Origin: Candidatus Latescibacterota bacterium
Lineage (GTDB): Bacteria; Latescibacterota; UBA2968; SICM01
Assembly: GCA_965217865.1 (NCBI GenBank)
Contig: CBDCJO010000002.1
Span: forward strand, 3,968,001 to 4,032,000
Direction: 5' to 3'
DNA: 64,000 nt
Positions 18,474 to 61,539 of this stretch are shown here, piece by piece (position 1 is the stretch's first letter; each line of letters begins with the position of its first letter). The position numbers and the translations under genes were made by a program. The notes beneath the pieces were generated by a model. That model was not told where the DNA came from and did no database searches. It saw only the letters and a list, made by a program, of their open reading frames with translations.

Positions 18474-18639
18474 CCCGTGGATCGTGGTTCGTGGATCGGA
18501 AAGAAGAGCCGTCAAACGTGAGACGTGAGACGGGAAAGGCAGGGATTGGAGGCACGTGGCCTGGGATGCTAGCGTCATTCCAAAATGACCCGGGATTCTC
18601 TTCGCTCAGCCGCAACAAAAAAGATGTAGGCATCTTTGC

Positions 18640-18705
18640 GTAGAAGAATCGCGCGGGAATGAATTCCCGCGCTACGTATACAAAGTCCGCCGCAGGCGGA
18701 CTCCC
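18640..18705. repeat. REP-like double hairpin, copy 1
   Basis: GCGCGGGAAT-GA-ATTCCCGCGC followed by AGTCCGCC-GCA-GGCGGACT; near-identical copy at 25884..25950. Confidence 0.85.
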
Positions 18706-18886
18706 ACCCAACATCACAATGGTATGACTTCTGCAGTTCTGTGGAAGGATCGAATTTGTCCTCTTTTGTTCCTTCTTCCTTATTAGTCCGGCTTGTCCGG
18801 ACTTCTTATTTGTAGCGAGGGAATTTGTTCCCTCGCCGTCTGGAGTCATTTCACCTTGACAAAGATGGGTAGGTGACGGGATTATA

Positions 18887-18955
18887 TGGGAGGGACGCCG
18901 TCCCCGGCGTCCGCTAACATCCCGGTCTTAAGGTCAGGGATTTTCAGAATCCCAA
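18887..18955. repeat. REP-like element with an inverted copy at 39121..39192
   Basis: GGAGGGACGCCG.CCCCGGCGTCCGCTAACATCC...GTCAG...TTTTCAGAATCCC is shared in reverse complement. Confidence 0.8.
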
Positions 18956-19219
18956 GGGGTCAAGGGTTTGGAGGTTTTCAGAGCGAATTGGGTGAATTTT
19001 AATGATGAACGGATCGATTAGGGGGGGAAGCGTTGTCGGCATCGGTTAACCGATTACGGCCCGCGAGGCCGCGGGCCCTCCCGGATACGGGTCGTTGATG
19101 ATGGGAATGCAACCTCGCGCCCAAAACCAATGGTTCAGGACCTGAGAATAGAAGGATCCTTCGACTACGCGGCAAAAACCGCCGCTCCGCTCAGGACGTG
19201 GCTTTCGAAACAATCTGCT

Positions 19220-22200
19220 ATGAATAAACAGCCCCCTTTTACTCGACCTCACGCGTTTGAAAATCGCAAATTGTGGATCTTCGCCTTCAGATTTGCAATT
19301 TCCTGATCTTTTCGGATGGCTGGTCCGCTGATCGTAGTGCCGCTCCGCGAATCGCCCCCACGATTGCCCGTCTGTCCTTCTGGTTGTCCCCTGACCGGTT
19401 CAGCGAGTTCGAGACGACATACCGAGAAAAACTTGTGCCTATCCTGAAGAAGCACGGTCTGGAGGAATCTTCGGAACGTGGACGCGCGACAATAGACGGG
19501 GTGTTCAGCCGTCTGTTCGAGGTGAGGGCGCCATCGGAGATTCCTGAAAGGAATAACGCCCTGCGAAATGACACAGCCTGGACTGCGATCCTGAAGGCGT
19601 TAGGGGAGAGTTTCGGAACCAACCGTAATGATGGAACGATTCGCCACAGCCTTCACCTTTATGCCGCGCCAGGAGCGCCTCCCAGAGTCGTATCTGCGGG
19701 TACAGGCAAGATCGTGCCCGCCGGGACAGGGAGGGGCCACTGGCGCACCTATGACGTGACGGACGGTTTGGCCGACGTGAATGTACAAGACATCCTACAG
19801 GATCGAGAGGGTGCCCTCTGGTTCGCCACCTCTAACGGTGTGAGCCGGTACGATCCCCTTCGACTCGCTGACGCTCGCTCAGGGCAGGCTTCGACAAGCT
19901 CAGGACAGGCTCTCCTTCGACTGTCCGGCACAAAGCGCAGCTCCGCTCGTGACATAGTGTTATCGATCATCCAGGACCGGGACGGGGAGATCTGGTTTGG
20001 AACCACAGGAGGGGTAGGGCGGTACGACGGGAAATCCTTATACCACTTTTACCAAGAAAGATGGACTGGCGGACAATTATGTGGTGACGGTCTTTGAAGA
20101 TCGGGATGGCACTATCTGGTTCGGAACCGAGGGGGGCGGTGTGAGCCGGTACGATAGGAAAAAATGGGAAACTTTCACCACCCGGGATGGGCTGGCGAAT
20201 AATTATGTAACAGAGATTTTTCAAGATTCAAAAGGAAATCTATGGATCGGCACGGAAGGCGGGGGGCTTAGTCGGTATAATGAACAGAAATTTGTCACTT
20301 TCACCACGAAAGACGGTCTTGGGGATAATCGAGTGGAGACGATCTTTGAGGACAGGGAGGGGGTTCTCTGGGTCGGCACCCAGGGGGGAGGTGTATCGCG
20401 GTTTGACGGGACGAGGTTTTCGACCTTCACCACGGAAGACGGCCTGGCCAATAATGTGGTGCGGTCGATCTTTCAGCACCGGGAAGGGCATCTCTGGTTC
20501 GGCACGGGCGGTGGTTTAAGCCAGTATAGCGGGCCGTCCTTTACCTCTTTTGCAGCCCGGGACGGCCTGGGGAACAACCAGGTGGAGACGATCTTTGAGG
20601 ATGGGGACGGGATTCTCTGGATCGGAACCGATGGCTCAGGTGTGAGTCGGTATGATGGGGGTGACCTTTACGCGCTTTACCGTACAGGATGGCCTGGCCA
20701 ATAATGAGGTTCGTTCGATCTTTCAGGATCGAGATGGAGTACTCTGGTTCGGCACCCGGGGCGGGATGAGCCGGTATGATGGCGTGACATTCACCAATTT
20801 TACGTTGGAGGGTGTGCTGGGGCATGATGAGATTCAATCGATTTTTCGAGACCGGGAGGGAAATCTCTGGTTCAGCGTTGAAGGGGGCGGGCTCATCCGG
20901 AATAATCCCTCCGGAGCCGAAAGGTCCTGGACGGTTTTCACCTCCGAGGATGGGGTGGGTCGGCATACGGTGTTTTCGATCTTTCAGGACCGGGATGGTA
21001 TTCTCTGGTTCGGCACCATGGGCGGGGGTGTGAGCCGGTTTGACCCTTCCGGCTCCGTAGGCCATGGACAGAGATTTATCACTTATACAGAACAGGATGG
21101 CGTTGGGCACAACGATGTGTTTTCTATCTTTCAAGACAGGGAGGGGTTCCTCTGGTTCGGTACGCAAGGCGGAGGGGTGAGTCGGTATGATGGTCAGGCT
21201 TTTACAACATTTACGACCCAGGACGGCCTGGCCAACAATGTGGTGCGATCGATCATTCAGGACCGGGAGGGCCATCTCTGGTTCGGAACATACGGCGGGG
21301 GCGTAAGCCGTTATGACGGGAATGACTTTCAGACTATGGACCTTCGGGACGGTCTTGCGGGCAACCAGGTGCTCTCCGTCATTCAGGATCGGAACGGTAA
21401 TCTCTGGTTCGGAACTTACGGCGGGTTGACGCGATATCGACAGCCTCTCTCGTCCGCTCCTCTGGTGTCTATCGAAGCGGTGGTGGCGGACCGCCGGTAT
21501 ACCGTCGGATCCGAACTGGAAATTCCCTCGAGTGTAAATCTGACTGCCTTTGAATTCAAGGGGATCAGTTTCAAGACCCGGGCGGAGTCGATGGTTTACA
21601 GGTATCGGTTGAAAGGCTACGACGAGGTCTGGAAGTCCACCCGCGCCCGGCGTGTGGAATACCCGGACCTTCCGAGAGGGGACTACACGTTCGAGGTGAG
21701 GGCAGTGGACCGGGACTTGGTGCCGTCGGACCGACCGGCATCGGTGACGATGCGAATACGCCTGCCTTATGAAAGAATCGCCTGGGTTTCAGCACTTGGC
21801 ATCGCTATAGGACTGATCGCCTGGCAGACAACCCGCGTGGTCCAGCGGGGACTTCGGCTGCGGGAAGGCGAGGCGCGGTTTCGGGGACTGTCAGAGGCCA
21901 CTTTCGAGGGGATTGCGCTCCACGAAGATGGTAAGATCCTGGATGCGAATCGGGCCCTGGCCACGATGTTCGGATATGATCCCTCTGGGATAATCGGAAA
22001 GACCGCCGCAGAGCTGTCTACTCCGGAATCGCACGGAATTGTCTACAAGAATATTCAATCCGGATATGATAGACCGTATGAGGTGGTGGGTTTGAAAAAG
22101 GATGGATCCACCTTTCCGATTGAGGTCATCGGCAGGGACGTTCCCTATCGTGGGCGCATCGTCAGGGTCACTGCGATTCGGGATCTCACGGATCGTAGAC

Positions 22201-23477
22201 GGGCGGAGGAGGAGCGGGCGAAGCTGGATGAACAGCTACAGCAGCTTCGCTATCTCTACCGGCTGCGGACCGCGATGGCGGGCGGACGGTCGCCGGAGGA
22301 GATCATTCGTAAGGCAGGCGAATCCGTGATGGAGGTTCTGTCGGTTTCAGGTGCGGGGGGCGCTCTGATCGATTACGATGCACGGACTTATAAGTTTGGG
22401 GAAACGGAGGGTGAGAACCTGATTCGTTACAAACGTCCGGTCGCCTGGGGGGAGCGGGAGCGGGGGGTCTTGCGGCTTTTCTGCAGCGTCAAACTGAGCG
22501 AGTCGCAGGAGCGTGCGCTCCTGGACGAGACGGCAGCGCAGATGGCACGGGCCCTGGAAGCGCGTGATCTGGAGCTGCAGCTTTTGGAATCCGCCCGATT
22601 GGTCTCCCTGGGGCAGATGGCTGCAGGCGTTGCCCACGAGATGAATCAGCCTCTGGGGGCGATCTCGGCCACGACGGAGGACTATTTCCTGAGATTAAGA
22701 GAAGGCATGGCGGTCTCTGACGAGCAGTGGACAGAGATGTTGAAACGGATTCTGGGCATGGTGGACCGCATGTCGGGCACGGTGGAGCATCTGCGGGCTT
22801 TTTCGCGAGACTCCTCAGAGGAGCGGGGTGTGCGGATGTCCGTAAAAGAGGTGATTCAGTCGGGTCTGGGCCTTATCGGGACTCAACTCAAGAACCACGG
22901 GATCGATCTGCATACCGAATTTGGGGAAGATGTGCCGGAGGTAAGAGGCCATCCTCGCCAGCTGGAACAGGTTTTTCTCAACCTGATCGGTAATGCGAGA
23001 GATGCGCTGGACGAGAAGGATGAAACCGTGGATCGTGGATCGTGGATCGTGGATCGTGAAATGACAGGCGGGAGGCAGGCGGTAAAGGCGCAAATAGGTT
23101 ATGACGAGTCACGAGTCACGAACCACGAATCACGTGGAGGGAGAGGGGATGGGACTAAGGGATGGGCGAAGCGTTTGATCATCCGGACCCGGCAAGAGGG
23201 TGACGATGTTGTGGCGGAGGTGGAGGACAACGGCGTTGGGATCGAGGAGGAGAATGTCGGACGGGTGTTCGAGCCGTTCTTCACGACCAAGGAGGCGGAT
23301 AAGGGAACGGGATTGGGGCTGTCGATTTCGTATGCGATTGTGAAGAACCACGGGGGAGAGATTGTGTGTGAGAGTCGGAAGGGGGAAGGTACGGTGTTTA
23401 GGGTGAGATTGCCGTGGGAAGAACGTGAAACGGCAAACGTGAGACGTGAGACTAGGAAAGTGAAACGTGAGACGTGA
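19220..23477 (+). CDS. Beta-propeller (Reg_prop)-YYY-TM-PAS-HisKA-HATPase sensor histidine kinase, split by 2-3 single-base frameshifts
   Basis: Repeated 'SIFQDRDGxLWFGTxGGVSRYDG'; YRYRLKGYD..W (YYY); PAS KKDGSTFPIEV; H-box VAHEMNQP; N-box NLIGNARDA; G-box GTGLGL. Frame breaks at ~20040 and 20657-20661, and probably at 19299-19301. Confidence 0.88.
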
Positions 23478-23538
23478 GACGTGAGAGGGGAGTCCGCCGC
23501 AAGCGGACTTTAGATCCTCAAACGGCAGACGTGAAACG
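23421..23538 (+). repeat. Left heptamer array (A[AG]ACGTG / AAACGGC)n upstream of the four-helix-bundle gene
   Basis: GAAACGTGAGACGTGAGACGTGAGA and similar units. The array also encodes the kinase tail (VRRETRKVKRET). Confidence 0.9.
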
Positions 23539-23549
23539 AGGGGATTGTC

Positions 23550-23912
23550 ATGTTGGATTTGCGTCATAAGAATCTGGAGGTTTGGAAAGCCAGTATAGAC
23601 TTCGTAAGTGACATATACCAATTGACAGGAAGTTTCCCCCAAAAGGAGTTGTACGGCATCACCAGTCAACTGAGAAGGGCTGCTGTCTCCGTCCCGTCAA
23701 ACCTCGCAGAAGGCTGTTCTCGGAGCTCTCCACTTGAGCGGAAGCGGTTTTACGAAATTGCCCGCTCCTCCTTGGTTGAGATGGATACCCATTTTGAGAT
23801 CTCCAGAAGGCTCGGATACTGCTCGGAAAATGATCTTAAAACGCTTTCAGAGAAAATGAATCATATTTTTGCCCTGCTTTCTCGGTTGCTTAAAAAAACG
23901 CAAGCATCATAA
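23550..23912 (+). CDS. Four helix bundle protein (23S rRNA IVP / TIGR02436-type)
   Basis: L.VW..S, FPQKELYGITSQLRRAAVSVPSNLAEG, FYEIARSSLVE and LGY signature. Confidence 0.93.
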   Translation: MLDLRHKNLEVWKASIDFVSDIYQLTGSFPQKELYGITSQLRRAAVSVPSNLAEGCSRSSPLERKRFYEIARSSLVEMDTHFEISRRLGYCSENDLKTLSEKMNHIFALLSRLLKKTQAS

Positions 23913-23958
23913 GCGTGATTTCACTGCCTGATATTGCCCAGGTATAGTAGACACAGAG

Positions 23959-24816
23959 TTAAGTGAATTTCTGTTCGAAGTCATCTGGGCTCATCTGGTT
24001 AATATAGGAGTGCCTGCGTATCTTGTTGTAAAATCCTTCGATGTATTCGAACAACGCCAACGCGGCTTGCTCTCGATCTGGATAGATCATTCCGTCGACT
24101 TCCTCTGTCTTGAGCCTTGCAAAGAAGGATTCAACAACGGCATTGTCATAACAATTTCCCTTTCTTGCCATGCTGGATCGGAAGCCGTTTTTGTCCAGCT
24201 CGGCTCTCAGGGCCTCACTGGTGAACTGGTTTCCCCTATCTGAGTGGAAGATGAGCCCCGGTTGCGGCTTGCGTCGCCGACAGGCCATCCGAAATGCCCG
24301 TAAGACCAGATCCGCCGTCATAAGACAGCCTGTGGACCAGCCTACGACTTTGCGAGCAAACAGATCCAACACCACGCACAGGTAAAGATATCCCCGTCGC
24401 GTGCGGATATAGGTGATATCCGATGCCCAGACCTTGTCCGGCTTATTCACCTGAAACTGCTGCTTCACCAGATCCCGGGACGCCAAACCGATGCCACCTT
24501 TGGTCAGCACCCGGAACCGACGCTTCGGCTTTCCCTGGATGCCGCAGGCCCGCATCAGCCGCGCAACACGATTACGGCTGCACATAATGCCTTCAGCCTT
24601 GAGATCTTGCGTTATCCGAGGACTGCCATACGCCCTCTTCCTGGAATGCTGATGCACTCTTCGAATGTGCTCAATCAGAGCACGATCGCGCTTGCATCGA
24701 CCACTTTCTGGCTCCTGGTGCCAGGCATAATAACCGCTTGGATCAACCTCCAGCACCCGGCACATCCGCCGTATCGGAAACTGACCCCGGTGCTCTTCGA
24801 TAAAGGCGTATCTCAT
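23959..24816 (-). CDS. IS3 transposase OrfB (DDE integrase core)
   Basis: YGSPRI, WASDITYI, HSDRGNQF, DNAVVESFF and YNKIRRHS motifs. Confidence 0.95.
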   Translation of the reverse strand: MRYAFIEEHRGQFPIRRMCRVLEVDPSGYYAWHQEPESGRCKRDRALIEHIRRVHQHSRKRAYGSPRITQDLKAEGIMCSRNRVARLMRACGIQGKPKRRFRVLTKGGIGLASRDLVKQQFQVNKPDKVWASDITYIRTRRGYLYLCVVLDLFARKVVGWSTGCLMTADLVLRAFRMACRRRKPQPGLIFHSDRGNQFTSEALRAELDKNGFRSSMARKGNCYDNAVVESFFARLKTEEVDGMIYPDREQAALALFEYIEGFYNKIRRHSYINQMSPDDFEQKFT

Positions 24817-25109
24817 TGGGACCGGTTGGAGAAGTAGGCCAGCGCTTTTTTTAGGATGTCTCGCTCTTGCTCGACCTGGGAAAGCTTGCGCTTCAGATCG
24901 TAGACCTCCTGGCCTTCCGTTGTCCGCTTCCCGTGACCCGGAAACACATCATCCGGATGCTTCTGAAACTGACCGATCCATCGATACAACACGCCTTCTG
25001 GAATGTCCCATTCCAGGGAAACTGCCTTCACCTTCTCGCCGTCCACCAGTACCTTACGAACGGACTCCAACTTGAACTGACGATCGTACCGCCTGCAACG
25101 ACGTACCAT
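24813..25109 (-). CDS. IS3 transposase OrfA (HTH)
   Basis: RRYDRQFKLESV...ERDILKKALAYF; A7G slippery site at 24845-24852 (minus strand); ATGA overlap with orfB. Confidence 0.92.
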   Translation of the reverse strand: MVRRCRRYDRQFKLESVRKVLVDGEKVKAVSLEWDIPEGVLYRWIGQFQKHPDDVFPGHGKRTTEGQEVYDLKRKLSQVEQERDILKKALAYFSNRSQ

Positions 25110-25165
25110 AGAGGACACCTCCCTTATCTGGGTGTCCACTAAATCGGGGCAAGATTAGCCTAGCC

Positions 25166-25199
25166 TTTTCCCGTCTCACGTTTCACGTCTCACGTTTCC
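25166..25199 (-). repeat. Right heptamer array, inverted relative to 23421..23538
   Basis: TTTTCCCGTCTCACGTTTCACGTCTCACGTTTCC is the reverse complement of GGAAACGTGAGACGTGAAACGTGAGACGGGAAAA. Confidence 0.9.
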
Positions 25200-25883: not shown

Positions 25884-25950
25884 GTAGAAGGCATCGCGCG
25901 GGAATGAATTCCCGCGCTACGTATAAAAAGTCCGCCACAGGCGGACTCCC
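25884..25950. repeat. REP-like double hairpin, copy 2
   Basis: Direct near-identical copy of 18640..18705. Confidence 0.85.
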
Positions 25951-26059: not shown

Positions 26060-26218
26060 CCTCCTTCAGATCAACTCCAGATTTACGTATAATCATCTGG
26101 CATATTGATTAATGAGAGCCGGCAGACGGTAAACGTGAAACGGCAGACGGAAAACCGATCAAGATTCTTTCCGTATGTCGTTTTCGCAAATTTTGGACAG
26201 GCTGTCCCCAGGGACTTC

Positions 26219-26596: not shown

Positions 26597-26645
26597 TCTT
26601 GGTTAGGGGATTAGTTCACCATTGTTCAATTCGGAGGGATCACCA

Positions 26646-29600
26646 ATGAAACTGTTCCGAAAATTTTCGATTCCAATGGCAACGCTGGTGTGCTGCGTAC
26701 TCGGATTCGCTGCCCAGGCGGGTGCCGGATCAGATATCATCACCACGATCGTTGGAGGCGGCGAGGCGGGCGGGCCCCTCGGGGACGGCGGCCCGGCAAC
26801 CAGCGCCGTGCTTAACAACCCGACAAGTGTGATCCTGGACAGTGCCGGCAATTTCTACATCGCCGACGAGAGAAACTATAGAATTCGCAAGGTCGATACT
26901 TCCGGAATTATATCAACGATCGCCGGAACCGGAGAATCGGGAAATTCAGGGGATGGCGGGCCGGCGATTGAAGCGAAGATGAGCCCAGAGGACATCGCAT
27001 TGGATTCCAGCGGCAACCTCTACATCCTCGGGAGTTCAGCGGAGTATGGGGTTGGGATTGTCCGCAAGGTCGATCCTGCCGGCGTGATCACCACGGTCGC
27101 GGGCGGTGGGCACTTGGGCATCCTGGGCGACGACAGTCTGGCCACGGAAGTCACGTTTTCTTTTGCAACAGGGATCCACGTTGATGAAGCCGGCAACCTT
27201 TACATTGCAGATGCTGGCGCTTCCCGCATCCGGAAGGTGGACCCCACGGGTATCATCACGACCGTCGCGGGGAACGGCACGGGCGGGTATTCCGGTGACG
27301 GAGGCGCGGCCATTGACGCCAGCCTGGGTAGCCCGCAAGATATTTTCGTTGACAACAATGGAGACCTCTACATCGCAGAACGGTTTAACGGTGTGATCCG
27401 CAAAGTCGATCCCTCGGGGATCATCACCACTGTTGCTGGAAACGGCAACAACGAAGCCCGATTGAGCGCGCCTAATGACATCTTCGTCGATGGAGGTGGA
27501 AACCTCTACATCGCCTCCAGTTCAGAAATTCGCCGGGTTGATCCATCCGGCATTATCACCACCATCGCCGGGGGAGGATTTGGAGATCTGGGCGACGGCG
27601 GCCCGGCCACCGAAGCCACCCTGAATAACCCGGCGGGTATCTTCGTGGACGGCTCCGGCAACCTCTACATCGCCGATACGGGAAACAACCGGATCCGCAA
27701 GGTGGCGCCGGCTTCTTTCCAGATCGCGTTGACTGCCACGCCGGATTTCATTTTGGAGTTGGAATCTTCGACGATTCGCGCGGAAATCCAGGACCGGGAC
27801 GGCAACCTGCAAAGCGATGACAATTCCACGGTCGTGACCTTCCGGATTACCAGCGGCGAAGGGACCCTGTCGGACGAAGAGGTGACCGCCTCGGGCGGGG
27901 TCGCGACCACCACCCTGACCTCTGAGACGGTCGGGGTCGTTAACATTGTGGCCGGTGCGCCAGATTCCGAAGATGGAATCCTGTCCGTCGAAGTGAAAGG
28001 CCCACAGGTGGTCATCTCGCTGACGGCCGACCCGAGTATTGTAACGGCAGACGGCTCCGATGCCTCCACCTTACGTGTGGAAGTCCGCGATCTGAGCGGC
28101 AACCTGAAGACCGGTGACAACAGTACCGTCGTGACCTTCCGCATCATGGGGGGGTTCGTATCCGAGGGCGGAGGGAGTCTGTCTTTCGAATCGGTAACCG
28201 CTTCGGGCGGGGTGGCCACCACGACCTTTAGAGGCAGCATGCCCGGTCAGGTGATCGTTGAGGCCGCCGCGTCGGGCGCGAGGGAGGTGACCGTGATCGT
28301 GTCCGTGTTGCGGGTTCCGTCGCAAACCGGGCCGTTCGGTCCCCCGCCGGTTTTGGAGATCGGGCCGGGTGAAATTGGCACGATTGCGGGGGGTTGGATC
28401 GGTGACGGGGGCCCCGCCACCGAGGCCGGCCTGAGCTCTCCGAGAGACCTTTTTGTGGACGGAGCCGGAAACCTCTACATCGCGGACAATGGAAACAATC
28501 GCATCCGCAAAGTCCACACCTCCGGCATCATAACAACGGTTGCGGGAACCGGCGATAAGGGTTTTAAGGTCGACGAAGGCGGACCCGCAACCGACGCGCA
28601 GATAGCCCTTCCGCTTGCCGTCACGGTCGATGCGTTGGGCAACATTTACCTTGCCCAATTTCGCACAGTGTGGAAGGTCGATACCTCGGGCATCATCACC
28701 AGAGTGGCCGGGTCGGGCTCTATATTGGACACTGGCGGCGACGGCGAACCGGCCACGGATACGAAAGTGGAGGGAATCACCGCAATTGCCGTGGACGGCT
28801 CCGGCAACCTTTTCATAGCACAAGAGAACAACCGGATCCGCAAAGTCGACCCGTCGGGCATCATCTCCACTGCGGCGAGTGTAGACGAACCGCTCAGCCT
28901 GGCGGTAGACGCATCAGGCAATCTCTACATATTGAGAAGGGACAGAAGCAGGAGCGTGACCCTCGTCGCAAAGATGGCCCCTTCGGGGACCATCACAACA
29001 ATTGCGGGCGGGGGCGGGGGGGGTGGCATACTCATCGAAGGCAGTCCGGCAACCGAGTTCCAACTTCTTGCCTCCTCGATCTCCGTGGACGCCGCGGGCA
29101 ACCTTTACATCTTGGGGAATGACAGGGTTTTGCGGGTGGATCTCTCGGGCGCCCTCACTACGGTGGCGGCCAATATCGGCCGTGGAACCGGCATAGCTCT
29201 AAATAGTGCGGGTGAGGTCTACTTCGCTGACGACGTTGATCACCGTGTGCGTAAAATCGGGACCGACGGCAGCATTGTCACCGTTGCAGGATCGATCGGC
29301 GACGGCCGACCTGCGACCCAGGTCAGCTTTATAAGCCCGCAGGGCATTACCATGGACAACGCGGGGAACATCTACATCGCGGATTCGGGCAACGGACGCG
29401 TTCGAAGAGTCGACCCGACCGGCACGATTTCCACAGTCGCCGGCGGGGGCACGGCGAGGGGGTCGGGCTTTCCCTTCATTGAATTCGTCGGTCCGGCCAC
29501 GGAAGCCGCGTTGAACCCCAGCGGGCTGGCCCTGGACGCGTCCGGCAACCTGTACGTGGTAGAATGGCAAGGCCACCGGATTCGGAAGGTGGACACGTCG

Positions 29601-32600
29601 GGTATCATCACGACCGTGGGGGGGACCGGAACACAGGGATTTTCAGGCGACGGGGGGGCGGCAACCGGGGCCAAGTTGAACCAACCTTATGGCGTTTTCG
29701 CAGACGGTTCTGGCAGTCTTTACATAGCGGACCAAGGCAACAACCGGGTGCGAAAGGTGGACCCCTCGGGAACGATTACCACGGTGGCGGGTAAGAGCGG
29801 GTCCGGTCCACTCGAGGAAAACATCCCCGCCATTGAAGCGAATCTTTTCGGTGTTTCGGCCGTGTTCGTGGATGGATCGGGCAACCTTTTTATCGCGCTA
29901 GGCTCTCGTGTCGTAAAGGTGGACCTGTCGGGCATCATCACGACCGTTGCCGGGGACAGGATTGCCGACCACGTGGGAGACGGTGGCCCTGCGACTGCTG
30001 CTGCTATGCAACCTGCAGACATCTTCGTGGACGATCTGGGGGACCTCTACATTGCGGACACGCGACACAACCGGATCCGGAAAGTCAGGATTATCCCTTC
30101 GCAGACCACGGATACCCCGGCCGGTACAGACGTTCCAATCGCATTCTCGGCCCAAACCTTGGGTGCCGCACCGGTCTCGATGACCTTCGGGCAGGTGACG
30201 CAGGCCGGTGAGACGACACTGGAGACAAGCGGCTCGGGGCCCGCAACGCCCGGAGGATTCCGGCTGATCGATCCCAGCGTGTTCTACCAGATCACGACGA
30301 CAGCCGCCTTCGAAGGATCGATCGAACTCTGCCTGGACTACACCGGGCTGAATGTCACAAACGAGTCCGAGCTGAAGCTGTTTCATTTGGAGAACAGCGT
30401 TTGGGCGGACGTCACCACCTCTCAGGACACACAGGAGGACGTCATCTGCGGCAGCGTGACGTCGCTGTCCCCGTTCGCCCTGTTCGAGACCCCGTTGCCC
30501 CCTCCCCAACCCGACTTCGCCGCGGACACGACCGCAGGGGTCGACTCCCTTACCGTGAAGTTTACGGACACCTCTGTTGGCAGTGTGACGGCCTGGGTAT
30601 GGTCGTTCGGTGACGGGGACAGCTCTTTCGTACAGAACCCGACGCATACCTACACGGTGGGAACCTTCACGGTGATTCTGACGGCCACGGGTCCGGGGGG
30701 ATCGAACACGATCGGGAAGGCGGACCTGATCTCGGTGCTGGAGGGGGTCAAGGCGGATTTCAGCCCGGACACCACCTCCGGACGTGTCCCGCTTGTCGTA
30801 ACGTTCAGCGACCCCTCCACAGGCACGGATCCTCTGAGCACGTGGTTGTGGACTTTTGGGGACGGGGACTCCTCCAGGGTTCAACATCCGACGCACACGT
30901 ATACGGAGGCCAATTCCTACGACGTAACGCTCACAGTCACAGCCGAAACCGGAACGGACACAAAGACGGTTCAGGACCTGATTGTCGTAACTCCGAACCT
31001 GTCGCCCACGGCCCCAGTCCCGCTCTCCCCTGCGGACGGCGCGATCCGGGTGCCCCTGAGTCCCACTCTTTCCTGGGGGAGTTCGATTGATCCCGAGGGG
31101 GACCCGGTCAGCTACGACGTGTTCCTGGGCACGGACCGGGTTGGGAGCACGTCGGACACGACGCAGATGGTGGGACCTCTGGACGAGGACACGGGCTACA
31201 CCTGGCACATCGTGTCGAAGGACGACCGCGGCGGCAGCGCGGAGGGTGCGACACGGGCGTTCACGACCGTGGGAGATACGCTTCCCCCTGTGGTCACGCG
31301 CGATCCTGTGGTGGAGGCGATCAGGCAGAGCGGTTTCAGGGTGGTCTGGCGGGTGGATGAGCGGAGCACGCCTTCTGTGTCGTATCGGGTGAGCGGAGAG
31401 ACCACCTTCACGACCTCTCCTGAGGGTTCATTGGGCAGGGACCAGCGAGTCGATGTGACGGATCTGTCGTCCGCGACCACGTACGAGTTCAGGGTGACCT
31501 CGCGGGATTCGTCGGGCAACGAGACGACGTTCCCGGATCCTCCCTATCCCACGGCCACGACGCTTGCCGAGGCGGACACCGAAGGTCCGCTCTTCACGGT
31601 TCTCCCGGCGGCCGAACACGTTTCCGACACAGTGATCGTGGTGGTGTGGAAGACGAACGAGAGCAGCACGACCGAGCTTCTGTACCGGGTCGAATCGGAT
31701 ACAGCGTTCGTTACCGGGCCTGCCGGTGCCGCGGGCACGAACCACCGCGGTGCGATCGGGGGGCTTACCCCCGGCACGAGTTATGTCCTCAGGGCCCGGT
31801 CCGTGGATGCCAGCGGGAACCCTTCGGTGGGGCCGGATCTGACGGTCACGACGGCGCCGCCTGTTGTGGAATCTATTCCGATTCGGGTTTCAAACGTGAG
31901 CGTGGTGGGTCGAACCGAGTCGCAGGCGATCATCGATTGGAGCACGAATCAGCCCGGCAGCAGTGTGGTGGAATACGGGTTGGGTTCGACGCTCAGGACC
32001 TCACAGACGGAGACCGGCGAGGACGGAGTGCTCGAGCACCGGGTCACGCTGTCGAGGCTGACCGATGACACGCCGTATTTCTATCGGGCCATCTCCGGCA
32101 CGGACACGAGCGATGTGTTCAGCTTCAGGACCCGGAAGGCGGTTCCGCCCGTACCGGCTGTGATCACGGAGGGCCCGCTTGTCCGGGGTATCGGGGAGGA
32201 CCGTGCGACGGTGCTGTGGAAGACGGACGTATTGGCCAGCAGCAGGGTGGAATTCGACACGACCGAGAATTCCTTGACACAGACCGTTTCCGATCCGGAC
32301 GGTGTGACGGATCACGCGGTGACGCTGACGGGTCTTTCGGCCTCCACGACGTATTTCTACAGGGTCGCGTCCGTAAACCTGTCGCGGCTGACGACGGAGA
32401 GCGACGTTTTCAGCTTCCGGACGCTGGACGCGCCGGACACGACCCCCCCGTCGATCCTGGAGCTGTCGGTTCCGGTCCGGACATCGGATGGATTTACGGT
32501 GACGTGGCGGACGAACGAGATCGGCACTTCGGAGGTGATCTATGCCGAGGACGGGGGTTCGGAACAGAGTCGAATCGCCCCGGGTTTCGCCGTGGATCAC

Positions 32601-35600
32601 AGTCTCAGCCTGTCCGGTTTGAGTGCGGAGACGACGTATGTGATCCGGGTGCGGTCGGCGGACCCAGCGGGGAATGGTGCGGAGAGCGAAGTGCAGGAGG
32701 TGACGACGCTGTCCGAGGCGGTGGTGGATGTATCGTCGCCCCGGCTGGTCAGAGCGCCCTCTGCTGCAGGGAGCTCACACGAAGGGGCTACGATTGTCTG
32801 GGGGACGGACGAGCCGGGCAACAGCCTGGTGGCCTATGGGGTGAGTGAGGATGACCTGCCCGAGGAACAGGGAGATTCGAGGCGTTTTACGACGGATCAC
32901 TCGGTGAGGCTGACCAATCTGGAGTCCGCCGAGATCTATTTCTTCCAAGTCTCCTCGACGGATGCCTTTGGAAACGGTCCGACGATTGGGACCGGGACGT
33001 TTACGACTCAGGCTGCTCCGGACACGATTTCGGTGAGCATCACAGAAGGTCCGACCGTGGTGTCGGTCACTGACGAATCCGCGGTGCTGTCCTGGAAGAC
33101 AAATGAGTTGAGCGACACGCAGGTGGATTACGCGGCGGGGTTAGACCCGACTGCGGCCGGCCTGACGCAAAGGATTATCCTGCCCGGGGCTGTAACGGAC
33201 CACCAGGTGACCCTGACGAACCTTTCCCCGAGCACAGGCTACGCGTTCCGCGCAGGATCGCAGGACGTTGCGCGGAACCCGCGGACTTTTAGCACGGACC
33301 GGACGTTCACGACGGAGGCAACGCCAGACACGATCCCACCGGACCTTGTGGGGGCGGTGACGATCAGCGAGCGGACGTCCACGACGATCACGCTGATCTA
33401 CACCACGGACGAGCCGACGAATACGGTGGTGGAGTTATGGGCTATCGGACTACAGCCTGGGACGCATCGAGCGTGGGTCCCTGAAGCTGACGCGGAGCGC
33501 GACGTTGACGGGATTGACTTCGGACACGGAGTACCGGTTTCGGATCAGTTCCCGGGACCGGGAGGGGAACGGGGTGACGACGGACCCCACGATCACGATC
33601 CCTCCGCCGAATACCCGGCTGCGATCCGATGACCTGCGGTCCACGACGACTGCGGAACCGGACGTGATTGAACCGGCGATTGTGGAGGGTCCGATCGTTT
33701 CGGTGAGCGGGAATAACGTGGTGGTCCGGTGGATCACGGACGAGCTGTCGGACAGCCGGGTCATCTACGCAACGATTGAGAATTACAACCGTCCGGGCCT
33801 GGAGAGCGAGGTGTTCGACGGTGCGTTGGTGACGGTTCACAGGATCACGCTTTCGCTAGATCTGAACACGCAGTACCTGTTCCGGACCCTCTCGACGGAT
33901 GTGGAGGGAAACACGGGGACATCGGGATCGACGGGGTCGACCAAACCGGCGGTTGATGGTCTGTCCCTGCAGGCGCCCGGGGCGGATGGGAGCTTTGAGA
34001 CCCCCATCGTGGCAGATACCAGTCCCCCTGTCATCCTCTCGGGGCCCACGCTGGTCGGGGCCACTTCGACATCGCTGATTCTGCAGTGGATTACGAACGA
34101 GGCCTCGAACAGCTTTGTGGAATATAGCGTCGGGGGACAGCCCGCCGGCCGTGTGGAGGATGGAACGCCCTTGACCCAACACCGGCTTGTTCTGACGAAG
34201 CTTGCACCCGGAACGACTTACACGATCAAAGTGGGCTCCACCGACCCATCAGGCAACGGTCCTTCGGTGAGCAGGCCCGGTGTGGCCTCGACGACGGCGG
34301 AGGTGGACGCCTCTCCGCCAAGGATCATTGAAGGCCCGGAGGTCTTCAAGAGCGACCGAGAGGCGGTCATCACATGGAAGACAGATGAGCCGGGAAACTC
34401 GACGGTGGAGTATGGAGCAGGGAGCGTGTTAGGCCTTACCCGGTCGATCCCGGACGCAGTGACCGGGCACCGGGTGATTCTCGCGAACCTGTCCCCGGAT
34501 GCCTCCTACAGCTTCCGGGTGGGATCCCTGGATATCTCGAACAACGGTCCGACGTGGTCATCGATAGAGGTGTTTCAGACAGACCCGACGCCGGATACAA
34601 CCCCACCGGACATCCCTGCGGATCCGGAGGTCACGGCGATCACGGATGAGACGGCTACGGTGTCGTGGGAGACGAACGAGGTGTCCGACAGCGGGGTGTC
34701 GTTCGGGACCTCGGCCTCGGATCTGGACTTTCAACATCGGTTCCTCCGAGGCGGTGAAGGACCACCGGGAGGTGCTGACCGGTCTTTTGCCTTCGACGAC
34801 TTACTTTTTGCAGGTGAGCTCGACGGACCGGTCGGGGAACGGCCCCACCTTCCGACCGGCCTCGGATCAGACGGTCTCGTTTACGACTGAGGACGCGCCG
34901 GATATGTCTGCTCCGGCAAAGGTGCAGGAGGTGCTGGGTGTGGTTGGGAGCCGGGCAATCCTTTTGACCTGGGAGGAGGGGTCGGAAGACGACCTGGCCG
35001 GTTACAATGTCTACCGGGCAACCGGGGAGGATGAACTCGGACTGATCGCCTCGAACCTGATTGACGCACGGTTCCAGGATGTGGGGTTGACGGATGAGGT
35101 GCCCTACCGGTATGCGGTGGCTGCGTTCGACGGCGCGGGCAACGAGGGGGAGAAGTCGGACGAGGCCTCGTTCACGCCCTCCGAGGCGAACGTGCCAACT
35201 GCCCCTGCCTTCCTGACGATCGAGGGGGAGGCGTTGATCCCCACTTTCGTTGTGGAGAATGCCACGGCCCCCGGGACCGCGGACCTGACCTACACTTTCC
35301 AGGTGTCGGCTCGAGATGACTTTGCGGACCTCGTGGACTCGGCCACGGATCTTCAGGAGGGGAACGAATCGACGGAGTCGGGGCTGACGGCCTGGACGAT
35401 CACTCGAGAGCTGACCCACGAAGCCACCTACTTTTTACGCGTGCGGGCAAACGACGGAACATTCGACGGTCCCTTTATGTCCCCGCATACCTTCCTTGTG
35501 GATACGACGGTCGTTTCGAATCCGGGTGACTTCAATGGGAGCTTCAAGGTGGACTTCGACGACTTCTTCCTGTTCGCGGCTGCGTTCGGACAGCCCGCAA

Positions 35601-45286: not shown

Positions 45287-45415
45287 GGATGCACCTCATT
45301 TGTGAAGGACCGTCAAACGTGAGACGTGAGACGTGAGAACGGGAAAGGCAGTAGCAGTGGCAGGACCGGATCCTGACCCCACCGATTCACGATTCACGAA
45401 CGACGATTCACGGTT

Positions 45416-46222
45416 TTACTTCCACACGCTGAATCCGCCGTCCACGACGAGATTGTGACCTGTGACATAGTCGGAGGCGGCGGATGCGAGAAAGAGGGCT
45501 GCGCCCTTGATGTCCACGCCCATTCGGCCCCAGCGACCGAGCATGGCGGCATCGGCGAAATCCCCTGTAAATTGCTCGGGGAGATCTCCCGGTTTTAGGA
45601 ATCCTCCCGGCGAAAGCGCGTTCACATAAACACCCTTCGGCGAAAGCAATCCGGCGAGATCTCGCGTCAGGCCCATCACGCCTGATTTTGCGGCGGCGTA
45701 GTCGATGGGTTGACCCTTCATGCCGCTTCTTTCATACATCCGACGGTCACGTCCGATAAGGCCGGCAATGGATGCGATATTGATGATTTTTCCGCGTCCC
45801 TGTGCCACCATATAACGGGCGGCCTCCTTGCAGCAGAAAAGGACCCCGGTCAGGTTTGCAACGATCAGATCCGCCTCGTGCTCGGGATCACGCTCGAATA
45901 GATGAGCAACGCTCTTTCTGGAGTCCCCGCCCGCATTATTGATGAGGATGTCGATGTGTCCCTTCCAGGCTTGGGCCTTTTCGACCATCGATTTGACCTG
46001 ATCGTGACGGCACTGATCCATCTCTAAACCCAGGGCCTCCACCTCGTGTTCTTTTGCGATCTTTTCGGCCGCCTCTTCTGCCCGCGACAAGCTCCGCGAT
46101 GTGATGATGACGTGGCTGCCGGCCTCCGCCATGGCGCACGCCATGTCATAACCGAGCCAGGCATAAGCCCCGGTCACGATGGCTACCTGGCCGTTCAGTC
46201 GGAACATATCCAAGACGTTCAT
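45416..46222 (-). CDS. SDR oxidoreductase (gluconate 5-dehydrogenase-like)
   Basis: TGAYAWLG, INNAG, YAAAK and VTGHNLVVDGG motifs. Confidence 0.92.
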   Translation of the reverse strand: MNVLDMFRLNGQVAIVTGAYAWLGYDMACAMAEAGSHVIITSRSLSRAEEAAEKIAKEHEVEALGLEMDQCRHDQVKSMVEKAQAWKGHIDILINNAGGDSRKSVAHLFERDPEHEADLIVANLTGVLFCCKEAARYMVAQGRGKIINIASIAGLIGRDRRMYERSGMKGQPIDYAAAKSGVMGLTRDLAGLLSPKGVYVNALSPGGFLKPGDLPEQFTGDFADAAMLGRWGRMGVDIKGAALFLASAASDYVTGHNLVVDGGFSVWK

Positions 46223-48800: not shown

Positions 48801-48908
48801 CTCGCCACTCCCAAATTCATTGAATATTGAATATCGGAAAATTGAATATTTGAACAATTCACGACATTCTTGGGGGTGCTCCAATATTCAATCTTCAATA
48901 TTCAATTT
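48801..48908. repeat. Inverted heptamer cassette (AATATTG)n...(CAATATT/CAATCTT)n
   Basis: About 55 bp match 61410..61467 in reverse complement. Confidence 0.8.
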
Positions 48909-53898: not shown

Positions 53899-54003
53899 AT
53901 CAGGATCCCTTTCGGAAAACCCGTAGATCGTGGATCGTGATTCGGGGATCGGAAAAGCAAAAAAAACTTTGGCAATTCATCCAATAATTCCCATCGATCA
54001 TTA

Positions 54004-54075
54004 ACGAATCACGAATCACGAATCACGAATCACGAATCACGAATCACGAATCACGAATCACGAATCACGAATCAC
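54004..54075. repeat. Perfect heptamer tandem array (ACGAATC)x10
   Basis: Counted directly; faces an inverted degenerate array at 53921-53952. Confidence 0.95.
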
Positions 54076-58047: not shown

Positions 58048-58146
58048 TCTGGGAGATCAAGAGTCATACGCAGACCGACCGTTCTGCATGAGAATGGGGA
58101 TGGAAAGATGAGAGAAGCCCAGGATCAGAAGAGGAGGAACACGAGG

Positions 58147-58641
58147 ATGCTGGTTCCGACGATTATTATGGGAACCCTGGCGATTATTCTTGTTCTGGTG
58201 GGATACTACCAAGGCCAGGGGCAACATATCGGAGGTCTAAGATTATCCATTCGTATGATCGCAGAAATTCTACCCCTGTTCATGTTTGCGTTTGTTGTTG
58301 CGGGCATGATCCAGGTCCTTATTCCGCAGGAGGCGATATCCAAGTGGGTTGGCGCCGAGTCGGGAATGCGAGGTATCATCCTGGGGACAGTCGCCGGAGG
58401 CCTCATTCCCGGGGGGCCTTATGTGAGCCTGCCTGTTGCAGCCGGGTTTTTGCGAGGGGGTGCAAGTGTGGGGTCGGTCGTCGCATTTTTAGCGGGATGG
58501 TCGCTCTGGTCCATCCCCAGGTTACCGATGGAGGTCGGGATATTGGGTTGGCAGTTCACCCTGGTCCGGATCGCGAGCACATTCTTTTTCCCCCCCGTTG
58601 CCGGGTTGATCGCTCAGACTTTTTTCCCAAGTGCGAAATAA
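58147..58641 (+). CDS. Predicted permease (ArsP/DUF318-like, half size)
   Basis: ISKWVGAESG.RGI...GGLIPGGPYVSLP...E..ILGWQFT motif; hydrophobic throughout. Confidence 0.8.
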   Translation: MLVPTIIMGTLAIILVLVGYYQGQGQHIGGLRLSIRMIAEILPLFMFAFVVAGMIQVLIPQEAISKWVGAESGMRGIILGTVAGGLIPGGPYVSLPVAAGFLRGGASVGSVVAFLAGWSLWSIPRLPMEVGILGWQFTLVRIASTFFFPPVAGLIAQTFFPSAK

Positions 58642-58703
58642 GCGAAAGTCCCGGGGACCCAGTTCGCGATCCTGGAAAATCGAACCCCTTTGACCTTTTC
58701 CGA

Positions 58704-61283
58704 TTATGTTTTTCGATGATCGGCGAGTCTCCGCACGGCCTGTTCCACCTGTCGTGCGGCTTCTTTGTAATCCCCGATCCCTTCGAGGGTGACCGGGGCA
58801 CCGAATTTTACCCCTACACGCCCCCTGCGGGGCCATTTTTTATGGATCGAGAAGACCTCGAACAAACCGTCGATATGGATCGGGATAACCGGAATCCGAA
58901 GGCCGATCCCCATCAGGCCGATACCCGGTTTGAAAGGGTTCAGTTCTCCGTCGGGGGAACGAACCCCTTCAGGAAAGACCAGTGGGCAGTATCCCAGATC
59001 CGCAAGCTCTCCAGTGTAGATCAGCGCCCGGCGAATTCGACCCATCTCCTGCGGAAGGGGGTAGGCATTGAAAAGGCCACAGGCGATATAAAACTTAATC
59101 GCACTTGTCAACCTTGCGGAAAAAGGAAATCCTTCCGGATGAAAATAGGGCTGAAAATAAGCCTGCATCATCGCGGGTGCCAGACGCCACCGCCATTCGA
59201 AGGGGAGGGAGGCCAGGATGGTGGGCGTATCGAAATGACTCGTATGATTGGCGGCGAAGATAACGGGGGGCCGGACCTTTTTGAGATTCTCGCCACCTTC
59301 CACGGTGATATCAACGATCCAGCGGAGTATGGGCAGGAGCGCGCACTGGAGAGCGGTCACACGGGACCAGCGAACGGGAAAAGACCGGGTCCACCGGGGA
59401 AGGTTGAACCGAACCGGTTTGTCCGGACCCTTCGGGATTGTCCGACCTCGTCGAGGTAAACCGCTTTCGAGCAATGAAGATTCAAGGCCTTCGGATGACC
59501 GGTCCAGCCACGCCTTGACTTCCCCCAGAGAAGACAGGCCGGCGAAGGTTTCCTCTTCCAGTTCCAATCCGTATCGATCCTCGAGCGCCGAAAGGAGATC
59601 GACCCTTTCAAGGGAGGACAATCCAAGATCTTCGACCAGCCGGTGGTCGTCCCTCAAATCCGACGTGTTCCTTCCGGCCATTCGAGCGATAATACCTTCG
59701 ATCCCAGGGGCCTCTTCCCCCTCTTTGTGTGGTTTGCTTGACGCCGTCGGGAGTAGGCGACCGGCCACTTCCCGCCTCAGGAGCTTCAGGGTCGATGGCG
59801 TTCGAGGAAAGCTCTCTTCAGGCCAGATGGACCAGGCTCGAATATGCTGGTGGGGTTCCAGCACCCGATTTGCCTTTTGAATGATTTTTTCGGGATTGGA
59901 CCCTTCATCTTCCAGGATCAAGGCGGCGTGAACGCGTTCTTCCCCGTTTGTCGGAAGGCCGACCACCACGCTCTCACGAACTTCAGGGAGGCGATTCAAG
60001 GCGGATTCAACGTCCTGCGGATGGACATTGAGCCCGTCAGAAGTCACGATGACGTCTTTTTTCCTTCCTTTATAGTAAAGAAGCCCTTCCTGATCGATTT
60101 CCCCGATATCCCCTGTGTGCAACCATCCGTTTTCAACGATTTTCGAGGATTCTTCTCCGGCCCCCATGAATTCCGTGACCACGTTCTCACCGCGGACCAG
60201 GATTTCACCGTCGGGGGCTATCCTGATTTCCTGTTCCCCGAGTGCCTTTCCGAGGGACCCCCGGCGCGTTTTGAATGGGTGATTCACGGACACCACGGGG
60301 CTGGTTTCCGTAAGACCGTAACCCTGAACCAGAATAAAACCGTGCCGGGACCAGAATTCCTCGATTTCAGGGTCAACCCGCGCCCCTCCCACGACGACGA
60401 ACCAGAACTTCCAGCCGAACTCCGCGTGGATAGATCGAGATCGCCAGGAGCGCCTCATGAAGGCCAGGGCGCCCTCTTTTTGAGGCGTTGTTGGAAGGAG
60501 ATCGAATCTCCGATCCAATTCGTTTTGGAGATTCATGAGGAGACGCGGGACGGCGACCAGGACCGAGATACGTTCCCGCCGTATGATCCGGATGATCGCG
60601 CTGGGGCGAAGGTCGCTCGAGTAGACCGCGGAGCCTTCGAGGAGCACGGGGATAAAAGCGCCAAGCGATTGCCCGAACATATGGCTGAGGGGGAGCATGT
60701 CCAAAAATCGGATGGGTTGGAAGGGACGTGCATATTTTTTGTAACGATCGATCTCCTTCTTGAACGGCTTCAGATTCGCGCAGATGTTGCGGTGACGATG
60801 GACGACGCCCTTGGGCTCTCCAGTAGTTCCGGAAGTAAACACGATTTCCGCGATGTCATCGGGTTCGACATCAGAGACTTCGAATTCCGCTTTTTCCGCG
60901 AGCCCATCGATTTGATCGAAAGAAAGCCCCTCTATCTGGAGCGGCGGGACGGCCTTTCCGTGAACCAGCAGGCGGGCTCCGACAATATCCTGGATCCTCC
61001 GGACAAGCCGGTCGGAGGATCGAAAATCGATCGGGACCACCGCAACACCTGAAGCCAGACACCCCCAGAAGGCGATCAGCCACTCCGGCCGGTTTTCACC
61101 CCATATTAACAGCCGGTCTCCCTTTCGGATTCCCCGCTCATCCAGAAAATCGATAAAGCCTCCTATTCCCGCCAGAAGCTCCTTGTAAGTGAGTTTAATG
61201 GTGCGAAGGCCGGTGTGGAATCGGACGGCCTCGCAATCACTAAGCCGACGCATATCGGGGAGGAGATCGAGAAGTGTTTTCAT
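58704..61283 (-). CDS. AMP-binding acyl-CoA synthetase / carrier domain / PlsC acyltransferase fusion
   Basis: FTSGTTGEPKG, QGYGLTE, LHTGDIG; DLGLSSL carrier motif; NHTSHFD and FPEG. Confidence 0.9.
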   Translation of the reverse strand: MKTLLDLLPDMRRLSDCEAVRFHTGLRTIKLTYKELLAGIGGFIDFLDERGIRKGDRLLIWGENRPEWLIAFWGCLASGVAVVPIDFRSSDRLVRRIQDIVGARLLVHGKAVPPLQIEGLSFDQIDGLAEKAEFEVSDVEPDDIAEIVFTSGTTGEPKGVVHRHRNICANLKPFKKEIDRYKKYARPFQPIRFLDMLPLSHMFGQSLGAFIPVLLEGSAVYSSDLRPSAIIRIIRRERISVLVAVPRLLMNLQNELDRRFDLLPTTPQKEGALAFMRRSWRSRSIHAEFGWKFWFVVVGGARVDPEIEEFWSRHGFILVQGYGLTETSPVVSVNHPFKTRRGSLGKALGEQEIRIAPDGEILVRGENVVTEFMGAGEESSKIVENGWLHTGDIGEIDQEGLLYYKGRKKDVIVTSDGLNVHPQDVESALNRLPEVRESVVVGLPTNGEERVHAALILEDEGSNPEKIIQKANRVLEPHQHIRAWSIWPEESFPRTPSTLKLLRREVAGRLLPTASSKPHKEGEEAPGIEGIIARMAGRNTSDLRDDHRLVEDLGLSSLERVDLLSALEDRYGLELEEETFAGLSSLGEVKAWLDRSSEGLESSLLESGLPRRGRTIPKGPDKPVRFNLPRWTRSFPVRWSRVTALQCALLPILRWIVDITVEGGENLKKVRPPVIFAANHTSHFDTPTILASLPFEWRWRLAPAMMQAYFQPYFHPEGFPFSARLTSAIKFYIACGLFNAYPLPQEMGRIRRALIYTGELADLGYCPLVFPEGVRSPDGELNPFKPGIGLMGIGLRIPVIPIHIDGLFEVFSIHKKWPRRGRVGVKFGAPVTLEGIGDYKEAARQVEQAVRRLADHRKT

Positions 61284-61539
61284 GGTGTCGCCACGGAGGA
61301 TTTCTATATATTACACAGGGGTCGGGGGCCAGGGAAAATTGAAGATCGACGATTGAAGATTATTGAAGATTGAAAATCGAAGAGATCCAAATGGCCACAG
61401 TAGTCCTGAGGTGTTCAAATCTTCAATTTTCCGATATTCAATATTCAATGAAGTTTGGGAGGTGAGGGGGAATTCAAATGCAAAATGCAAAAACCCGTGT
61501 CGCGCCCAAAAAGGAATGGTTCAAGAACTGTAATAGAAG

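Follow-up and report, generated by a model that had tools for sequence, protein, structure and literature searches.

The stretch of DNA analysed here, 64,000 nucleotides of Candidatus Latescibacterota contig CBDCJO010000002.1 (positions 3,968,001 to 4,032,000; hereafter the window), carries dispersed arrays of seven-nucleotide units together with a single gene for a four-helix-bundle protein of family TIGR02436 / PF05635 (FHB), which lies between two complementary arms built of such units. The arrays are an ordinary member of the published class of dispersed intergenic heptamer repeats, of the type described by Rehm, by MacGregor and as short tandemly repeated repetitive (STRR) sequences. This known class occurs here in a multi-family variant, and its tie to FHB cassettes is well supported. 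We propose that the arrays are probably the inverted arms of such cassettes, which persisted after their gene was lost and were likely copied anew, a short block at a time, in this lineage.

Period-7 arrays in the window and in the genome

The host genome (6.43 Mb in two contigs, GC content 55%) contains 386 period-7 arrays, 346 of them non-coding, and all 27 bins of 250 kb hold some. An earlier reading of the window from its letters alone (the sequence-only reading) had claimed an excess of period 7, and this is borne out genome-wide by 330 intergenic arrays against 0.7 expected from three dinucleotide shuffles. Tandem Repeats Finder gave 103 rows of period 7 at a score of at least 50 and between 0 and 8 rows for each of periods 5, 6 and 8-12; in the window, which otherwise holds sugar-catabolism, secreted and signalling genes, the single FHB gene and one IS3 element, period 7 makes up 28 of 53 rows. 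With our own detector, 15 period-7 arrays scoring at least 11 were found in the window and none in 20 shuffles, each other period from 4 to 12 yielding at most one array at that score. Periods 5 and 8-11 remain at or close to background genome-wide. Period 6 is represented by 46 intergenic arrays (0.7 in shuffles), largely of one family (GCAGTA/GCAGTG) that occurs in the same chains as the heptamers; the period had been called constant, which holds as an excess of period 7 but not strictly, since this hexamer shares the chains. All 18 coordinates at which units had been listed do carry them, that at 3365 being short and degenerate.

The arrays are placed with a clear polarity. Within 15 nt after a stop codon, the G-rich strand is the sense strand in 85 cases and the C-rich strand in 7, and the mirror orientation precedes start codons (52 versus 12 within 40 nt); the description of arrays beginning right after stop codons is therefore correct for the G-rich-sense orientation and incomplete for the mirror form in front of starts. 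Of the 472 modules within 40 nt of a gene boundary, 417 have their G-rich strand directed away from the nearest one, and this polarity holds at stops, at starts and in every type of gap. Modules occupy 43 of 463 divergent, 392 of 2549 codirectional and 85 of 400 convergent gaps, as delimited outside the window by a rough gene caller that misses AT-rich genes, the window FHB gene among them. An assembly or long-read artefact is ruled out by a short-read contig, which reproduces window positions 19882-23957 without any difference (its run is possibly the source sample), and by arrays in related strains, those about 96-97% identical carrying arrays at the same positions. Two RNA runs contained 7-9% of the sequence words of the region.

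Unit families, chains and hairpins

About eight unit families can be distinguished: A (ATTGAAG), B (AAAATG followed by G, C or A), C (CAGAATA), D (CGTGGAT), E (GTCAGAG), F (ACGTGAG), G (GACGATG) and H (GCAGTA), of which H has period 6 and the others period 7. The ten commonest of 74 consensus units, with AAGATTG, AAAATGG, AATACAG and ATTCGTG at their head, account for 248 of the 386 arrays. Patterns for the families detect 1219 non-coding modules compared with about 33 in shuffles, a contrast that is overstated because the patterns were derived from the arrays themselves and the module counts are not independent. GGGG is present only in some E and D variants. A quadruplex role as the common cause was considered and rejected, G-tracts being absent from most units.

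Modules are chained in preferred orders. Neighbouring modules lie on the same strand in 522 cases and on opposite strands in 94, and 70 of the latter are same-family pairs capable of forming a hairpin, the reverse arrangement occurring only twice. Many of the arrays are halves of inverted pairs, which corrects the sequence-only reading. F stands before H in a ratio of 35:3 and E before A in a ratio of 44:6. Composite blocks had also been said to recur nearly verbatim, and the block common to 18475 and 40515 indeed matches at 89% over 53 nt.

In families A and D, hairpins are built around a conserved non-repeat loop, with 68 and 26 core matches genome-wide at a mean identity of 0.71 and 0.69, respectively (16 of the 68 family-A rows were listed individually). 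These loops and junctions, common to unrelated sites, agree with the earlier claim that more than local slippage is at work. A search of 167 further genomes of the phylum, in which five candidates per genome were scored, matched neither loop. Hairpin folding surpasses shuffles in five of six regions (z from -2.5 to -4.5). In the window, a family-A hairpin (ATTGAAG/ATTGAAT, z -4.5) with the conserved loop lies at 48819-48906, one arm overlapping the stop at 48895; a family-D hairpin at 53921-54075, one of the 26 core matches, combines a degenerate arm, the conserved loop and 10 perfect inverted units; and at 61321-61492 an E module is followed by a family-A hairpin with the conserved loop, one of the 68 core matches, and then by B. 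A further family-D hairpin without a gene, consisting of a CGTGGAT arm and its complement (23027-23134, plus strand, z -4.5), lies inside a histidine kinase open reading frame (ORF), in the region of the ATPase domain; the frame is open across the hairpin, and kinase profiles match in two stretches, one on either side of it.

Translated in one frame, the loop consensus of family A gives a short, basic peptide that terminates at a stop codon immediately ahead of the 3' arm and bears a loose likeness to FHB C-termini. This peptide is too short to serve as evidence, and the idea of the loops as gene remnants was set aside. At C2:4522805, a family-D element has the usual core followed by a long perfect array of the variant unit CGTGGTG, from which it follows that one base change has been propagated along the entire array. 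REP-like palindromes of several kinds, recurring elsewhere in the genome, are interspersed in the heptamer chains; in the window they lie at 23490-23511, 25897-25950, 36510-36537, 39160-39190 and 40660-40690, and no cognate transposase was identified for them.

FHB cassettes in this genome and in relatives

The window FHB gene (23550-23912, plus strand) encodes 120 aa, and its only significant match in the PDB is 2GSC, the structure of XCC0516 with five chains. Its 5' arm, of family F (ACGTGAG/ACGGCAA; 23422-23486, plus strand), falls within the 3' end of ORF 20652-23477, which encodes the histidine kinase, and a second, short F module (23522-23539, plus strand) precedes the FHB ribosome-binding site. 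The inverted 3' arm is interrupted: a first piece (23917-23928, minus strand) is followed by an IS3 element (23929-25157, minus strand) with a 3-bp target duplication, and the remainder (25161-25198, minus strand), the complement of family F, ends 12 nt short of the point where a receiver-domain gene starts. The IS3 is later than the cassette and stands outside the repeat family. The duplex of the two arms is predicted at -59.7 kcal/mol, compared with -39.0 +/- 4.3 in shuffles. Each of the four FHB genes of the genome lies between inverted arms of a different family (F, G, B and H in turn), and all these families are also dispersed without a gene. Between same-family arms placed 150-1500 nt apart (nine pairs), the search for other passengers gave two genes resembling insertion-sequence transposases, one ordinary gene, or no credible ORF. 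The second FHB gene (L013, C2:852906-854120) has a hairpin on each side instead of one arm each, lacks a clear start codon and has a frame open into the downstream gene.

The arrangement extends to other phyla. Among 77 loci of relatives of the window gene (80 returned, minus three with short flanks), a period-7 arm score of at least 8 was obtained upstream in 44 and downstream in 60, and a locus's own flanks pair better than swapped flanks in 66. Family F units flank 43 of the 80 loci nearest the window gene, compared with 3 of 83 nearest another FHB clade. Protein identity correlates with similarity of the arms in 5-mers (rho 0.38 versus 0.21 in control flanks, 125 proteins), also after GC matching (0.40 versus 0.15), and for the window gene alone rho reaches 0.68. 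For a different passenger, GxxExxY genes (20 genes, hand tally), 17 of the 20 arms scoring at least 8 have period 9-10 and none has period 7; no GxxExxY gene was matched in this genome, which shows no clear array excess at periods 9-10. TIGR02436 was also matched in Bacteroides thetaiotaomicron. FHB relatives in viral contigs were not confirmed with two queries, and the third FHB gene, used as a query over 301 genomes, returned two matches at the cut-off used.

An insertion site in a DNA methylase gene

In relatives, an orthologous site within an N6/N4 DNA methylase gene could be resolved at 52 of 53 loci: 44 are empty (48 nt), six contain full cassettes and two retain the arms with an internally deleted FHB gene. 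The coexistence of empty, full and gene-deleted alleles means that the cassette is an insertion and that its arms outlive the gene. No target duplication is visible at this site. The inserts measure 479, 486 and 493 nt and thus differ in steps of exactly 7 nt. The filled loci are L002, L003, L004, L006, L334, L344, L350 and L360, in genomes G001, G035, G012, G008, G463, G114, G109 and G072, in that order. The host frame is open in six of the eight filled alleles, in four of these across the whole FHB gene, which is read in another frame; the same frame is open in only 5 of 154 other FHB loci. The remaining two filled alleles are one heptamer off (+7 and -7) and out of frame. As read from these alleles, the one-heptamer difference could possibly act as an on/off switch.

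Changes in unit number, chain turnover and the search for a generator

Contigs of two other runs show a 7-nt gap within 45239-45482. Together with the differences at the methylase site, these whole-unit changes demonstrate that slippage acts, adding and removing whole units; among the matches listed, perfect arrays of 0 to 37 units stand behind one fixed core. Slippage cannot produce shared loops, shared junctions or mirror pairs. The chains also differ between close copies: two tandem M24 peptidase genes (39285-40511 and 41142-42368), 95% identical in DNA, have different chains behind their stops, and in another strain the module order behind the stop at 42368 is different, in a contig that is possibly a hybrid of the two paralogues.

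A dedicated generator had been put forward in the sequence-only reading. No such enzyme was found, and the demonstrable slippage of unit number tells against that part of the claim. Within 1.5 kb of three reverse transcriptase, two stand-alone GIY-YIG, one DUF559 and four atypical Y1 transposase loci, no heptamer module was detected bar one two-unit match, and none of the three reverse transcriptase genes is near an FHB gene or a module. Likewise, no cognate transposase with the same arms was found among the atypical Y1, GIY-YIG, DUF559 and reverse transcriptase loci, a check that did not take in the 13 near-identical IS200-type copies one by one, or other transposase families. PADLOC returned no match for the window FHB and one other FHB of this genome. 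The GIY-YIG gene at C2:2606000-2607200 and the DUF559 gene at C2:764000-765100 are each flanked by non-heptamer repeats or palindromes of their own.

Array density across the phylum

Array density was compared with FHB count in 24 genomes of the phylum, sampled as five stretches totalling 95-100 kb each and picked for few contigs and contrasting FHB counts; kin are not independent in this sample, and FHB matches are not copy numbers. The comparison of genomes having FHB with genomes lacking it gave p 0.20 under a strict threshold and p 0.035 under a loose one. Array load ranges from 0 to 25 per 100 kb among relatives. In one family (f2), FHB occurs in 1 of 54 genomes and no array in the five genomes sampled, and 16 of the 19 genomes outside it have at least one array (hand tally). 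The association between FHB and arrays that remains is a lineage-level pattern only, resting on this family, and current FHB copy number does not set array load.

Other array sites in the window

Several chains stand directly behind genes. On the plus strand, a chain of D then F (18475-18545) begins 1-2 nt past the stop at 18473, a family F array lies at 26120-26155, and a chain of F then E (GTCAGAG/GTCGGAG; 36448-36501) begins 8 nt past the stop at 36439. A long plus-strand chain of F and four D modules with interspersed palindromes occupies 38905-39225. Behind the M24 peptidase copies, also on the plus strand, a D-F-H-palindrome-D chain (40515-40712) starts 3 nt past the stop of the first and an F-D-D chain (42375-42490) follows that of the second. 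On the minus strand are a family B module (40816-40845) and a family G array (GACGATG/GACCATA; 44240-44269), the latter 6 nt past the stop of a minus-strand gene. At 45311-45412, F and H modules on the plus strand and a D module on the minus strand are each directed away from the adjoining gene; the 7-nt gap in contigs of two other runs falls in this stretch. The family B array at 12398-12434 (plus strand) stands 26 nt ahead of where a minus-strand gene starts, with its C-rich strand sense, and the short, degenerate B module AAAATG[GCA] at 3358-3378 (plus strand) lies in a divergent gap.

A propeller-domain sensor kinase (19273-23477) appears to be split over consecutive ORFs, as does a very large secreted protein with NHL, PKD and fn3 domains (26622-36439). 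Since the short-read contig agrees over 19882-23957, the break in the kinase ORF is not unique to this assembly. The window also contains, at 37033-37514, a 249-bp near-perfect tandem duplication inside the ORF of a secreted protein.

Discussion

We propose that the arrays derive from FHB cassettes along the following path. Cassettes would be acquired by transfer and lodge at gene boundaries, their arms pointing inward, each FHB gene lying, as it does here, between a G-rich arm and its complement, and the window gene having its unit in common with its closest relatives in other phyla. A cassette would enter as a discrete insertion and its arms would stay when the gene is deleted internally, as is seen in relatives at the methylase site. 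The gene-less hairpins and chains would then be copied as blocks to new gene ends. Recombination, or gene conversion, between arms already present would be the simplest route, one that would yield same-strand chains of fixed order and leave no target duplications. Slippage would subsequently tune the number of units, in agreement with the steps of 7 nt. By analogy, arms directed away from both neighbours may fold the insert into one RNA stem, and the orientation rule would persist because such a single stem, as in rRNA intervening sequences, leaves the genes readable. For block copying and slippage, the FHB protein is likely a passenger.

A number of observations weigh against this proposal. 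Across the 24 genomes, array density does not follow FHB count (Spearman rho 0.14, p 0.53 under the strict threshold; rho 0.30, p 0.15 under the loose one). The sequence-only reading had tied the arrays to a four-helix cassette and expected density to rise with copy number; the first claim gains from the inverted arms at all four FHB genes and from the arms in relatives, and the second is not supported, no dose relation having been found. In G002, the genome of highest density (91% complete; 25 arrays over 95 kb), neither FHB nor GxxExxY was matched, and G082, with six FHB matches, has no array. In this genome, families A, C, D and E, which make up 719 of the 1219 non-coding modules, have no FHB gene, and three of the four FHB genes seem to be broken or have no evident start, assembly error being possible. 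Outside it, the patterns of these same four families stand beside only 1-3 of 183 FHB loci each and those of G and H beside none of the 183, while family B flanks both clades alike (9 of 80 and 9 of 83 loci). Of the three genes for which the link between unit and clade was tested, one did not show it (rho -0.17), and not all loci of the other FHB clade have the G-rich-first polarity. The link is also explained, with no function involved, by transfer of the gene together with its flanks. Finally, inspection by eye of 143 candidate rows, mostly repeats or larger duplications, gave no clean empty/filled pair within the genome, and block copying is thus not directly seen.

Three other explanations have to be weighed. 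Plain replication slippage, proposed by Mrazek et al. in 2007 as reported in a passage of PMC4679880, might favour 7-nt units, with selection leaving arrays at gene ends and FHB genes merely occupying the same tolerant spots. The 7-nt gap at 45239-45482, the graded inserts, the 0-37 units behind one core and the lack of a dose correlation with FHB would all be expected of it. A small vocabulary of units that recurs in other genomes and phyla would not, nor would fixed chain order or 70 inverted same-family pairs against 2 in reverse; the non-repeat loops and junctions common to the copies had already weakened this explanation, which we consider unlikely. The arrays could also be RNA elements selected by the host, serving to bind proteins, to form stems for processing or to protect against Rho or 3' decay, with a host protein or the FHB pentamer as their reader. 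Such a role is consistent with the strict gene polarity (417 of 472), with the scarcity of modules in divergent gaps, with hairpins that fold better than shuffles in five of six regions and with the homology of PF05635 to Avd reported in the part of PMC10053308 that concerns it. It is less easily reconciled with a module order that varies between strains and between 95%-identical paralogues, with the state of three of the four FHB genes, with a load that ranges from 0 to 25 arrays per 100 kb among relatives, or with Rehm et al., in whose account of similar repeats (PMC4692102, passages on function) no regulatory role was found. We allow it a small chance.

A dedicated enzyme could act either through templated tandem synthesis by a reverse transcriptase, telomerase-like as in DRT10 and with an Avd-like FHB cofactor, or through a transposase working in trans on the hairpins. 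The period that tracks the passenger family (7 for FHB, 9-10 for GxxExxY), the unit that tracks the FHB clade for the window gene and the lineage-specific burst of hairpins with a common loop would suit such an activity, as would the action of Avd together with a reverse transcriptase, described in the relevant passage of PMC10053308. None of the candidate loci has modules nearby bar the two-unit match, however, PADLOC recognises neither of the two FHB genes submitted, the densest genome lacks FHB, and no target duplication is visible at the one resolved insertion site; moreover, the repeat synthesised by DRT10 has 9 nt, and its integration is not described in the portion of PMC12632851 that deals with it. 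An enzyme of this kind seems improbable to us.

Our preferred reading, cassette arms that outlive their gene, could be extended further. FHB cassettes may be widespread mobile elements bounded by RNA stems, whose Avd-like pentamer would recognise the heptamer arms of its own cassette and, together with an enzyme of the host or of a retroelement, place copies of the arm-bounded units at gene boundaries, which is a speculative view and in our estimation rather doubtful. If it were true, the unit would be specific to the protein clade and the period to the passenger family (7 for FHB, 9-10 for GxxExxY), and these elements would have left as their footprint the excess of heptamer repeats long known in bacteria. 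One genome shows many unit families at once, several of them tied to one orphan protein family, and the heptamer puzzle thereby becomes testable, by asking whether FHB proteins bind to their arms and whether new arrays are seeded by an intact cassette.

Comparison with known systems

Cyanobacterial STRR sequences are period-7 intergenic repeats, and the likeness to them that the sequence-only reading had pointed out is supported. Repetitive extragenic palindromic (REP) sequences, bacterial interspersed mosaic elements (BIMEs), REP doublet hairpins (REPINs) and transposable elements of the miniature inverted-repeat type (MITEs) are short non-coding modules that are chained at gene 3' ends and amplified in a lineage-specific manner. 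The REP-like palindromes interspersed in the heptamer chains add to this likeness, and the 68 and 26 core matches of families A and D are copies scattered through the genome whose ends are inverted and whose interior is shared, as in MITEs and REPINs. REP, BIME and REPIN units are palindromic, whereas the units here are direct heptamer repeats; unlike for MITEs and REPINs, no cognate transposase bordered by such arms came to light among the loci checked. At the one resolved site no target duplication is visible.

The S23p intervening sequence of Coxiella has tandem heptamers upstream of its ORF, where RNase III cuts (PMC4990558, in the passages on this element, to which the following likenesses also refer). 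The same protein family lies there between complementary ends, the copy number of the heptamer varies among strains, and the ORF decays while the stem stays (PMC4990558). An ORF of PF05635 / S23p between complementary arms is found at four sites in the genome studied here, the gene-less arrays lying outside that definition. The Coxiella element is located in 23S rRNA, whereas here all four FHB genes lie at or in protein genes, cassettes and relics occur at or inside protein genes, and gene-less copies number in the hundreds.

The over-abundance of heptamers in bacteria has been noted since 2007 (Mrazek et al., as cited in passages of PMC4692102 and PMC4679880). The TAACTGA repeats that MacGregor (2015) described in Beggiatoaceae, Cyanobacteria and Bacteroidetes are, in the passages characterising them, alike in their period of 7, intergenic position and 2-6 copies with some very long arrays, in the placement of one strand just before starts and in a patchy spread suggesting transfer; they differ in their units and in the translational role proposed for them (PMC4679880). 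The text of that paper contains none of the terms four helix, IVP or intervening sequence. In published literature, subscription journals and preprint supplements lying outside the search, no general link between FHB and intergenic heptamers was found, and as far as we searched the tie of heptamer arrays to FHB cassettes is unpublished.

The closest parallel is provided by the GGGAATC repeats of Xanthomonas and the GGGGA(C/T)T repeats of Nostoc, for which the passages on function of Rehm et al. (2015) report none found (PMC4692102). As portrayed in the sections on their distribution, they too are short intergenic arrays spread genome-wide, occur in inverted pairs and are rare between divergent genes, and they have the same polarity, the G-rich strand being sense in the 50 bp that follow stops and antisense in the 50 bp that precede starts (PMC4692102). 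Those sections give one unit family per genome, whereas there are about eight here, chained in preferred orders. Every Xanthomonas and Nostoc unit has a tract of three or four G, in contrast to most units here, and quadruplex folding therefore cannot be the common cause. The main-text passages of Rehm et al. draw no link to FHB (PMC4692102). A supplementary table, in the rows concerned, nevertheless places a GGGAATC array of Xanthomonas between the bccP stop and the XCC0516 start; XCC0516, itself an FHB gene, is thus directly preceded by an array (PMC4692102).

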